Positions 54,822-57,499 are shown, counted from the stretch's first letter. The stretch: DNA of 64,000 bases from an uncultured Chlamydiae bacterium (GCA_963754655.1 CAVWGN010000001.1:2624001-2688000), one strand, 5' to 3'. Notes: generated by a model not told the origin, from the sequence alone. A program made the numbers and translations.

Positions 54822-54908
54822 TAGCAGCCAGCTTCCTTGCCGGGAAGCTGTATTAGGCTTATTGTCAATGTATGCGATCGTATCAGTGCTTTAAGTTAAT
54901 AGCTCTAG

Positions 54909-55066
54909 TACTCAACCACATTAGTTTTGTGTATTTAGATTGCTTCAAAGCCCCGGGGTTGAATTGACGTAAGTGGGTCCATATTGCTAATATTGACCCA
55001 CTTACGTCAATTCAACCGCGGGAGCTTTCAAGCAGTCTAAATACACAAAACTAATGTGGTTGAGTA
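54909..55066. mobile_element. 158-bp palindromic MITE with TACTCAACCACATTAG termini, CTAG-flanked
   Basis: CTAG at 54905-54908 and 55067-55070; inverted repeat over almost the whole length. Confidence 0.9.
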
Positions 55067-55070
55067 CTAG

Positions 55071-55563
55071 TACTCAACCACATTAGTTTTTGCCTATGGG
55101 AATGGTTTTAAATCCCTATGCGTTAAGGTAAGAGATGGGTGTAGGCTACGTTGCCGCATTCAGTCGCCACGCCGCTTCGCTCTGGGCTCTATGAGAGGGT
55201 TCATGGACCCACCGTTCGGTCGCCCTCCGGGCTCGGTCACGGTGGGCTAGAAACAGTCGTCCTCCGGACTCTAGCGGCATTATCAAAACGCCTTGACTAG
55301 CATTCTAGCAGCATTATTATGAAACACCTTACCTAACATTCAATGGCTTCTACATTGGCGCTAGAGTCCGTAGGACGACTGATTCTAGCCCACCGTGACC
55401 GAGCCCGGAGGGCGACCGAACGGTGGGTCCATGAACCCTCTCATAGAGCCCAGAGCGAAGCGGCGTGGCGACTGAATGCGGCACGTAGCCTACACCCATC
55501 TCTTACCTTAACGCATAGGGATTTAAAACCATTCCCATAGGCAAAAACTAATGTGGTTGAGTA
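55071..55563. mobile_element. 493-bp palindromic MITE, same termini but different GC-rich cargo
   Basis: about 205-bp arms (55071-55276 and 55359-55563), about 82-bp spacer; CTAG on both sides. Confidence 0.9.
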
Positions 55564-55866
55564 CTAGTTTAGCCTATTGGGAGTGCTTCACAGGCACTGG
55601 GTTGGGATGAGATGATTCTCTTGTAGTCCTTCAGACTACATGACGAGGGCTAATCTAACCCAGGGCGATGCCCTGGGCTATTTTTATTTGAAGCCCTTCA
55701 GGCTCTGAACATTGGACATCTTTTTGTTAACCATCTCTAAAATGATTGTGGAGTATGTACCATTTAATAGGAATGGCCCTACAATTGTTATAGAAGGAGG
55801 TCTTCCAAAAATGTCCAATGTTCAGAGCCTGAAGGGCTTCAAATAAAAATAGCCCAGGGCATCGCC

Positions 55867-57358
55867 CTTGTCATTACCCAAATTTTTCAAGGTTGTTGTA
55901 TAATAGATGTTTTTCAACAAAGGAGATATTTATGCATACAACACGATATGAATTTGATACAGGCATGTGGGCTTATAAAAACTTTGGGAAAGTTCAGCTA
56001 TTTGATAAAAGGAGGACGCGGAGATTAGTTGATATGGCAACAAAACTAGCTATGCATCCAGGACAATTTTTTTCCTCTCTTTATACAAAGTGGTATGATA
56101 TTAAAGCATCCTATAATCTTCTTGATCAAAATGTTATGACACCTGATACCATTCAATCAAACCATCGGGCTTTAGCAACACAAAACATGTTAAATTGGCA
56201 TGGCGATATCTTACTTATAGAAGATAGTTCAGAATTTGAATGGAATGGACAAGAACCAATTGAAGGTTTGGGTCCTGTAGGCTCTGGCAGAAAAGGGGAT
56301 CAAGGATTTATTTTGCATTCTACTATTGCTTTAGGAATAAGGAACAAAACCTCTTCAAAAGATCCCTGTGTAAAAATTTTAGGTTTGCCCTCTCAACAAT
56401 ATTATGTGCGTCCTCCTAAAAGAGAGAAGACCCATAAACGAGGAAACGGACAACAAGGGCTCGAGACAGATTTGTGGTCAAAGATGCTTAAAAACCAGGC
56501 TCCAAAGAGTAATCAAAATAGATTGATTAGAGTCTGTGATCGCAATGCAGATATTTACGAAGTTCTTCAGGATACTCAGGCATCTGGATATGATTATATC
56601 ATCCGAGTCAAACATGATCGTGTAGATAATAACGATTGGGAAATTCGTTTGTTTGAAACATTAAGAGAATTACCCCCAATAGGAGCTACTACAATTGATC
56701 GCAGAGGAAGAAATGGAACAACAAAAAGAACGATTTCATTGAATGTAAATTGGCAAGAAGTATCCCTACGGGCTCCTGCAAGGCCCGGTTATAGTATTGG
56801 GGAATTACCTACGCTGCAAGTGACTGTAGTACATGTTTGGGGCGTTGATCCCGAGGATGGCAGTACGATTGAATGGTTTTTATATACTTCTTTAAGCATA
56901 AATAATATTGAATCTGCATATCTTATTGTAAAATATTATTCGCTACGTTGGATGATAGAAGATTTTCATAAAACTCTTAAAAGTGGATTAAGAGCCGAAG
57001 ATCTTCAATTAGAAAATGCTCATAGACTTTTTGCTGCAATTGCGATTATGAGTATTGTTGCACTTAGATTAGTAGATCTCAGAGAATCTTTAAGGACTAA
57101 TCCTGATGGCGACGCAAAAGAAAGCGGACTTAGTCAATTTGAAATAAAAGTCCTTGAAACCTATCTTAAAAGGAAGATAAAGACGGTTAAATGTGTAGCG
57201 CTAGCGATCGGGAAGCTAGGAGGTCACATTAACAGAAAAAGTGATGGAATGCCGGGATTAAAGACCCTTTGGCTTGACATGAGTAGGCTTATAGATCTTG
57301 TAGAAGGTGCAAAGTTAATGAAAATAATAAATTTTTGAAAAATTTGGGTAATGACAAG
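55867..57358 (+). mobile_element. IS4 family (IS50/Tn5-like) insertion sequence, 1492 bp
   Basis: 24-bp perfect TIR CTTGTCATTACCCAAATTTTTCAA; 9-bp TSD GGCATCGCC at 55858-55866 and 57359-57367. Confidence 0.95.
55932..57338 (+). CDS. IS4 family DDE transposase
   Basis: AGGAG RBS; DSSE, VCDRNAD, YSLRWMIEDFHKTLK (YREK motif), GGHINRKSDGMPG. Confidence 0.95.
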   Translation: MHTTRYEFDTGMWAYKNFGKVQLFDKRRTRRLVDMATKLAMHPGQFFSSLYTKWYDIKASYNLLDQNVMTPDTIQSNHRALATQNMLNWHGDILLIEDSSEFEWNGQEPIEGLGPVGSGRKGDQGFILHSTIALGIRNKTSSKDPCVKILGLPSQQYYVRPPKREKTHKRGNGQQGLETDLWSKMLKNQAPKSNQNRLIRVCDRNADIYEVLQDTQASGYDYIIRVKHDRVDNNDWEIRLFETLRELPPIGATTIDRRGRNGTTKRTISLNVNWQEVSLRAPARPGYSIGELPTLQVTVVHVWGVDPEDGSTIEWFLYTSLSINNIESAYLIVKYYSLRWMIEDFHKTLKSGLRAEDLQLENAHRLFAAIAIMSIVALRLVDLRESLRTNPDGDAKESGLSQFEIKVLETYLKRKIKTVKCVALAIGKLGGHINRKSDGMPGLKTLWLDMSRLIDLVEGAKLMKIINF

Positions 57359-57499
57359 GGCATCGCCCTGGGTTAGATTAGCCCTCGTCATGTAGTCTGA
57401 AGGGCTACAAGAGAATCATCTCATCCCAACCCAGTGCCTGTGAAGCAATCCCACTAGGCTAAAATTAGTGTGGTTGAGAGTACTAGCCTTGAAGGAAGA

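Follow-up and report, generated by a model that had tools for sequence, protein, structure and literature searches.

The 64,000-nucleotide window analysed here (the whole stretch GCA_963754655.1 CAVWGN010000001.1:2624001-2688000, from an uncultured Chlamydiae bacterium) contains, at 54905-57486, three long palindromic units in tandem. Which enzyme moved these units, and how did their interiors come to differ? The initial annotation proposed a non-autonomous element with fixed ends and exchangeable cargo, related both to IS5- or IS701-family transposases and to paired repetitive extragenic palindromic (REP) hairpins moved by REP-associated tyrosine transposases (RAYTs). The sequence comparisons reported here lead to another family. 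With good confidence, each of the three units is a copy of a gene-less IS630-type MITE (a miniature transposable element with inverted repeats), and would have been cut and pasted with its cargo into the TA of CTAG sites by a transposase acting in trans. Shell: the outer, recurrent part of the units, filed as an IS630-derived MITE whose cognate gene is missing from this genome. Cargo: the palindromic modules that it encloses. C1 and C2: contigs of the assembly.

Most of the architecture first described stands. Three elements are joined at CTAG tetramers (54905, 55067, 55564 and 57483); units 1 and 2, whose 20-bp termini are identical, measure 158 and 493 bp without CTAG. The interiors are unrelated palindromes, and units 1 and 2 form long hairpins when folded (z = -48 relative to 20 shuffles). 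The unit boundary had been placed wrongly at the edge of CTAG: the TA is duplicated, and every unit starts with G and ends with C (redrawn limits of the three units are given in the table). Unit 1 is 97.5% identical to copies at C1:2002141 and C1:2208415; unit 2 is 98.4% identical to C1:2242042. An Rfam scan of the units gave sub-threshold miRNA hairpin matches alone, which are taken as chance matches to any long hairpin.

The terminus is found genome-wide and is not confined to the window. A whole-genome search with the 20-mer gave 74 exact matches and 166 at up to 3 mismatches (reversed control 20-mer: 0 at 3 mismatches). A weight-matrix scan (threshold, 18) gave 234 termini (controls, 0), which pair into 75 elements of 75-2287 bp; this number of termini corresponds to about 120 elements in the genome. 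The elements are non-coding and have terminal inverted repeats, the open reading frames (ORFs) of long copies being those of inserted insertion sequences (ISs); the proposal of a non-autonomous element with fixed ends is thus borne out.

The family assignment depends on the target duplication. CTAG precedes 129 of the 166 termini, as it should if the shell were a MITE of an IS5- or IS701-family element duplicating the whole CTAG. Empty sites with a single CTAG, predicted by the initial annotation, do exist: joined flanks occur elsewhere in the genome for 5 of 69 paired elements (48, 40, 67, 2 and 2 spanning matches; 16 of the 69 gave spanning matches, and 8 self-matches caused by tandems and 3 ambiguous singles were dropped). 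Both models accommodate these sites: since G is the first base of the element and C the last, an empty site cannot separate duplication of CTAG from duplication of TA. The flanks of the 69 paired elements are CTAG/CTAG in 39 cases and non-CTAG in 30, and the latter are informative: 12 fit a TA duplication (xTA/G...C/TAy, slashes marking the limits of the element) and none fits a 4-bp direct repeat. The T is kept in 189 of 205 termini and the A in 192, the outer C in 171 and the inner G in 176; 4 of 7 exact tandem junctions share a TA without being CTAG. The title of a 1991 paper by Tenzen and Ohtsubo, cited in PMC2170065, names TA in CTAG as the preferred target. The evidence points to a duplicated TA inside a preferred CTAG, putatively produced by a transposase of the IS630 clade. 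TA duplication is a defining trait of Tc1/mariner/IS630 elements (PMC2170065).

The ends give the same answer. Compared by eye with the IS701 end pattern (---YACT-Y--YR; PMC2266710, Table 1), one terminus variant fits if TAG is counted and the other misses one position. The search for an IS5 or IS701 element bearing these ends gave none: the genome has no PF13546 match, the ends of its sole IS701-like remnant (C1:500945-503153) and those of the IS701 elements of cyanobacterial genomes are unrelated to the shell, and the ends of its own IS5-type elements differ. IS630 ends match at 19-20 of 22 positions. An origin from an element duplicating the whole CTAG is largely refuted and highly improbable. 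The remnant at C1:500945-503153 is a broken element with nested transposase fragments, one of them IS630-like and one presumably ISAs1-like. Separately, 18 of 50 ends of the IS5-type element directly adjoin a shell end, shell ends making up about 4% of all CTAGs (14% outside ORFs); a preference of this element for palindrome edges is possible.

The autonomous IS expected to share these ends was found in cyanobacteria, as an IS630; none was found in this genome. A terminus scan of the genome collection gave 18 matches, all titled cyanobacteria, and five cyanobacterial genomes have 12-180 terminus matches each (controls, 0-1). The single match of a metagenome pattern scan is the same locus as a Calothrix genome match. 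Genome G041 contains three 1313-1314-bp elements with shell-type ends, TA flanks and two overlapping ORFs (the ORF check covered these elements): ORF B matches NF033545 at 142 bits (cut-off, 100) and ORF A matches the N-terminal part of this model. G042 and G043 add two further IS630-bearing elements with TA flanks and the same ends. The IS630 ends of Rivularia-like cyanobacteria are identical to those of unit 1 at the 19-20 positions mentioned above. The same transposase clade is found in 25 of 400 genomes of the phylum of the window; in 4 of 30 loci fetched, the ends match the shell at 16-17 of 22 positions and follow cTA. ISMae29 and ISAcma30 (RefSeq names) belong to this clade (58-60% identity to the Rivularia ORF B), are 1.2-1.3 kb long and have cTA/G ends, but these match the shell less well (13-15 of 22) than those of the Rivularia-like elements. 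ISY100 serves as the model for the IS630-family mechanism (PMC2170065).

Several observations weigh against an IS630-type MITE mobilized in trans. No cognate transposase was detected by tblastn and hidden Markov model searches of this genome (96.7% complete), so that mobilization in trans is deduced from other genomes; the best tblastn matches belong to a different IS630 (28% and 35% identity), whose ends share the first five bases with the shell and 9 of 22 overall. Eighteen of the 30 non-CTAG pairs fit neither the TA nor the 4-bp model, presumably owing to later mutation. Single changes affect the inner G 16 times and the outer C 18 times, so conservation of the terminal base is not strict. 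None of 40 relatives gave a match to the terminus, and among 400 genomes from the phylum matches stay at the level of controls (3 single matches, 4 in controls); consequently no strain-level polymorphism is visible. No orthologous empty site was found at this locus: in the fetched loci the downstream neighbour genes were not found beside the orthologue, and although 6 of 25 genomes contain relatives of the 194-aa gene, no DNA alignment emerged. Lastly, no target duplication was identified for the C-E and D hairpin doublets (cargos of units 3 and 2). As to the resident IS630, an intact-looking copy with CTAG targets lies at C1:954916-956053, and a frameshifted one at about C1:1630363-1631495 lies inside a D-type palindrome, followed by an IS5-type element and then by a shell.

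Shells are of two types, never paired in one element. O1 (units 1 and 3) combines modules A, B, C, E and F in many ways; O2, the type of unit 2, carries D in 13 of 14 copies. The cargo is therefore exchangeable in that a shell type can have several cargos; the free exchange first envisaged is contradicted by the constancy of O2 and by the separation of the two types. All 52 BLAST matches of core A are inside shells (the core being palindromic, about 26 copies), including 2 scored as free that lie inside a degenerate shell.

Shell and cargo recur as near-identical units: in 19 pairs, among them those of units 1 and 2 with the copies named above, whole elements reach 97% identity or more despite unrelated flanks. 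Since composites, including those with two cargos, recur 97-99% identical at unrelated sites, shell and cargo likely move together. Alternatively, empty shells could have spread first and been filled site by site by other elements, without any joint movement. A full-length 1.9-2.1-kb relative of cargo B inserted at the same GC-rich palindrome, and the position of most copies of the commonest cyanobacterial REP outside shells, would agree with such filling. Recognised cargo is absent from 2 of 60 short paired elements; besides the recurrent composites, filled 160-bp units occupy CTAG sites that are empty in 40-67 paralogues, and private variants shared by shell and cargo across loci are partly seen. 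This alternative is very unlikely.

How an individual cargo arrived is a distinct matter. In A+B elements, A lies beside B, between repeats of the GC-rich palindrome; this layout suggests replacement by insertion followed by deletion. In 11 D elements, arm identity is 94.6% within and 87.7% between elements, which is consistent with copying from arm to arm. Rather than being packaged, cargo seems to be acquired through insertion, deletion and copying between arms. Cargo B and one flank of a Y1 tyrosine transposase gene score 36.4 bits, below the cut-off of 37, with the Acido-Lenti-1 RNA motif (Rfam RF01687); the three units of the window have no match to it at E <= 0.1 or at the gathering score.

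The spread of REPs is usually ascribed to RAYT enzymes, and a RAYT-dependent REP cargo had been proposed here. Part of this proposal holds, since the cargos of units 2 and 3 match flanks of Y1 genes; unit 1 matches none, and the linked Y1 genes are of subclass 1.2, and the two of them scanned fall far below the RAYT cut-off. The left D arm of unit 2 is identical at 116 of 133 positions to the DNA directly 3′ of Y1 gene C1:2429353-2429802, which could be an inserted D element in its own right. In unit 3, the C-E arm has matches in both flanks of the Y1 genes near C1:2.54 Mb, from the last codons on: with the 3′ flank of C1:2544215-2544685 it shares 66 of 81 positions, and with the 5′ flank of C1:2542085-2542555 it shares 68 of 90. 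Besides IS200-type genes, seven subclass-1.2-like Y1 matches (one truncated) are listed in the genome. Their proteins have the motifs of subclass 1.2 (DHVH, WQ, YIxNQxxHH), and NF047646 (class 2 RAYT) matches two of the seven at 25.3 and 22.6 bits, against a cut-off of 80. Y1 subclass-1.2 genes flanked by mirrored multi-hairpin modules are found at C1:2939279-2939758, 395750-396268 and 2542085-2544685. Doublets outside shells, in which two Y1-gene 3′ ends face each other across a spacer of about 200 bp, are found at C1:166939-167268, 412911-413213, 1898093-1898307 and 3099326-3099649; their orientation is reversed relative to that of doublets inside shells.

The Y1 genes raise a further alternative: the palindromes could be units like REPINs (paired REP hairpins), moved as single-stranded hairpins by the resident Y1 subclass-1.2 proteins, the IS630-like ends being passengers. 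The flank matches of units 2 and 3, the absence of the cognate IS630 and the C and D arms that lie beyond recognised shells (36 of 98 matches for C, 36 of 77 for D, some of them in degenerate shells) agree with this scheme. Filled elements start and stop exactly at IS630-type ends with a duplicated TA, however, and unit 1 matches no Y1 flank. Y1 insertion of the IS200/IS605 type is not known to duplicate a target. Movement by the Y1 proteins is quite improbable. As in REPINs and bacterial interspersed mosaic elements (BIMEs) associated with RAYTs, inverted hairpin doublets match the flanks of Y1 genes (PMC2817692; PMC6006769), and the repeat captures a Y1-gene 3′ end, as reported for four BIMEs. 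In contrast to these systems, the shell is bounded on the outside by DDE-type ends and a target duplication, and the Y1 genes belong to subclass 1.2, listed without REPs in Table 1 of PMC6006769. As regards the GT(A/G)G foot expected on one short hairpin, the cargos of the window are multi-hairpin modules. The shell works like a composite carrier of REP-like doublets, as distinct from a RAYT-type REPIN.

As first noted, unit 3 is truncated on the left and degenerate on the right. Its description as a copy of one palindrome family was incomplete, since an intact element of the IS4 family (IS50 subgroup) accounts for 1492 of its 1917 bp. The remainder is a 416-bp palindrome, which aligns with the copy at 10165-10597 of the window (362 of 438 columns). 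The left end is short by about 16 bp and stops at TA. Because 33 termini carry an internal CTAG at this place, unit 2 probably landed in the end of unit 3; the TA at 55565-55566 is probably the internal TA of the terminus of unit 3, whose outer 16 bp or so would have been lost. The transposase of the inserted IS has the Pfam domains Tnp_DNA_bind, DDE_Tnp_1 and Dimer_Tnp_Tn5, matches NF033590 at 279 bits and has a Y-R-E-K motif at residue 336. In Table 1 of PMC2266710, the IS50 subgroup is characterised by size (1350-1550 bp), ends (CW------Y---CA-A--W), an 8-9-bp duplication and the YREK motif; the IS of unit 3 has all of these (7 of 7 specified end positions, 9-bp duplication). It differs from the subgroup in its distribution: three copies are found in the genome, one split by another IS, and every one lies in the same hairpin of the C-E module.

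The tandem arrangement had been ascribed to a special tendency of the element to re-insert into its own target duplication. Of 10 tail-to-head pairs in the genome, 9 are on C1. If all 5428 CTAGs are counted as targets, 2.4 are expected (P = 0.0009); with the 1594 CTAGs outside ORFs, 8.2 are expected (P = 0.44; crude mask of ATG ORFs of at least 100 aa, covering 79%). Under this intergenic null, self-targeting is needless as a cause of stacking in this genome, and the earlier claim is not upheld.

Self-targeting looks stronger in cyanobacteria than here: a shared TA joins 20 of 31 distinct shells, and likewise 4 of 5 IS630 elements, to another end, in loci chosen by terminus match and therefore not a random sample. 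The flanking positions beyond TA are biased in these stacks. The cyanobacterial shells are 121-240 bp long, and 26 of the 31 have GTRG...CYAC doublets inside, which are of several kinds. Genes passing the RAYT cut-off (NF047646) are flanked by two of the REP types concerned. For the commonest REP, 7 of the first 30 loci are inside shells (some being the same element). As most copies are outside, REP doublets are independent repeats, part of which ride in IS630 shells. Other hairpin cargos are found in the shells of cyanobacterial loci L077, L079 and L094, with other TA-flanked ends stacked beside them, suggesting that several IS630 end families share these arrays.

The palindromes could also be assembly or fold-back artefacts. 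No listed public contig bridges the junctions, and the single DNA run containing the region (share, 0.31) has low depth; no RNA run with the region is listed. The arms are nevertheless imperfect, the spacers asymmetric and target duplications present; near-identical copies occur at many loci, and unit 3 encloses an intact IS flanked by a 9-bp duplication of its own. The same design is found in unrelated cyanobacterial assemblies, and short-read contigs of run X1, possibly the source sample, contain the modules (summed depth, 10-34). An artefact is hardly credible.

On the reading of IS630-type MITEs moved in trans, an IS630 transposase would paste the shell and its inner palindromic repeats into the TA of CTAG sites. 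The responsible enzyme would since have been lost from the genome or be missing from the assembly; the distant resident IS630 might cross-react, although 9 of 22 end bases match. Other elements would insert at the GC-rich palindrome in the centre of the shell, and deletions between the resulting direct repeats would drop the old cargo (A, then A+B, then B). Changes in one arm would be copied to the other, so that units stay palindromic. As an insertion would leave CTA at both junctions, a later copy could land there and share one TA; the stacking seen here would need no more than this re-use of CTA and selection against insertions in genes. At this locus, unit 3 would have come first, followed by the IS50-type insertion and by unit 2 (at the internal TA of the end of unit 3, where about 16 bp would have been lost); unit 1 would also have been added.

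The closest named counterparts are the Correia elements (Neisseria) and RUP (Streptococcus pneumoniae), given as IS630-derived MITEs in PMC2817692. These and the shell are non-coding, have terminal inverted repeats, a TA duplication and ends shared with an IS630, and reach about 100 copies or more. The shell differs from them in being palindromic throughout, in its size range (75 bp to >2 kb), in its nested hairpin doublets and other elements, and in that its best-matching transposon is found in another phylum and not in the host genome. In this genome, the outer repeat shell is thereby assigned to a transposase clade, its target rule is corrected, and orphan Y1 subclass-1.2 genes are linked to hairpin modules. 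REP spread is called poorly understood in PMC8266576. Since cyanobacteria have shells of the same design, these may offer bacterial palindromic repeats a second spreading route. This route is testable: a DDE transposase, of a family for which the ISY100 in vitro system exists, would move REP-like doublets in gene-less shells. A broader proposal is tentative, with somewhat less than an even chance of being right: one IS630 clade, in at least two phyla, could be a general cut-and-paste carrier of host Y1/RAYT doublets, forming head-to-tail arrays at shared TAs. If so, a real share of REP doublets spreads without a tyrosine transposase of its own, and the cyanobacterial transposase actively prefers its own ends as targets. 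No description of REP doublets in IS630 MITEs was found in the literature searched, where subscription journals, largely outside the search, may hold one. The system was not found described in environmental chlamydiae, and the cyanobacterial MITE lists of PMC2779907 and PMC3184786 are, in the parts available, without this architecture (the cyanobacterial MITE papers cited in PMC3184786 were outside the search).

The region lies between converging genes (194 aa, ending at 54821; 172 aa, ending at 57500). Its features are listed below.

Features of the palindrome stack. Positions are those of the window; the strand is given only when the feature is oriented.
Feature	Position	Strand	Remarks
TA target duplication, left	54906-54907		Within preferred CTAG 54905-54908
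Unit 1, 160-bp palindrome	54908-55067		Shell type O1 around hairpin core A
Terminal inverted repeat of unit 1, 22 bp	54908-54929	+	19-20/22 as in cyanobacterial IS630 ends
Core A hairpin	54960-55016		
TA common to units 1 and 2	55068-55069		
Unit 2, 495-bp palindrome	55070-55564		Shell type O2 around D hairpin doublet
Left D arm of unit 2	55141-55279	+	Mirror arm at about 55356-55493
TA common to units 2 and 3	55565-55566		
Unit 3	55567-57483		O1 shell, truncated left and degenerate right end, C-E hairpin doublet inside
C-E arm, three hairpins	55602-55723	+	At its start, final codons and stop from a Y1 subclass-1.2 gene
IS target duplication, 9 bp	55858-55866 (left copy); 57359-57367 (right copy)		Middle hairpin, right arm
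IS4-family, IS50-subgroup IS, 1492 bp	55867-57358	+	
Transposase ORF	55932-57338	+	468 aa from ATG; 481 aa from TTG at 55893
TA target duplication, right	57484-57485		Within CTAG 57483-57486; 15 bp from the stop of the 172-aa gene

Elsewhere in the assembly, the small contig C2 (C2:34015) repeats the flank near the start of C1 (C1:8081), with its shell end and transposase, and may overlap C1. In the window, 28649-33269 and 34896-35678 contain three arrays of 75-bp repeats in three apparently paralogous genes, and a tandem of 3 x 261 bp. Two adjacent ORFs rich in glycine, histidine and tyrosine, with signal-peptide-like starts, are found at 62922-63999; the Rfam Prion_pknot match there is taken as a low-complexity match.

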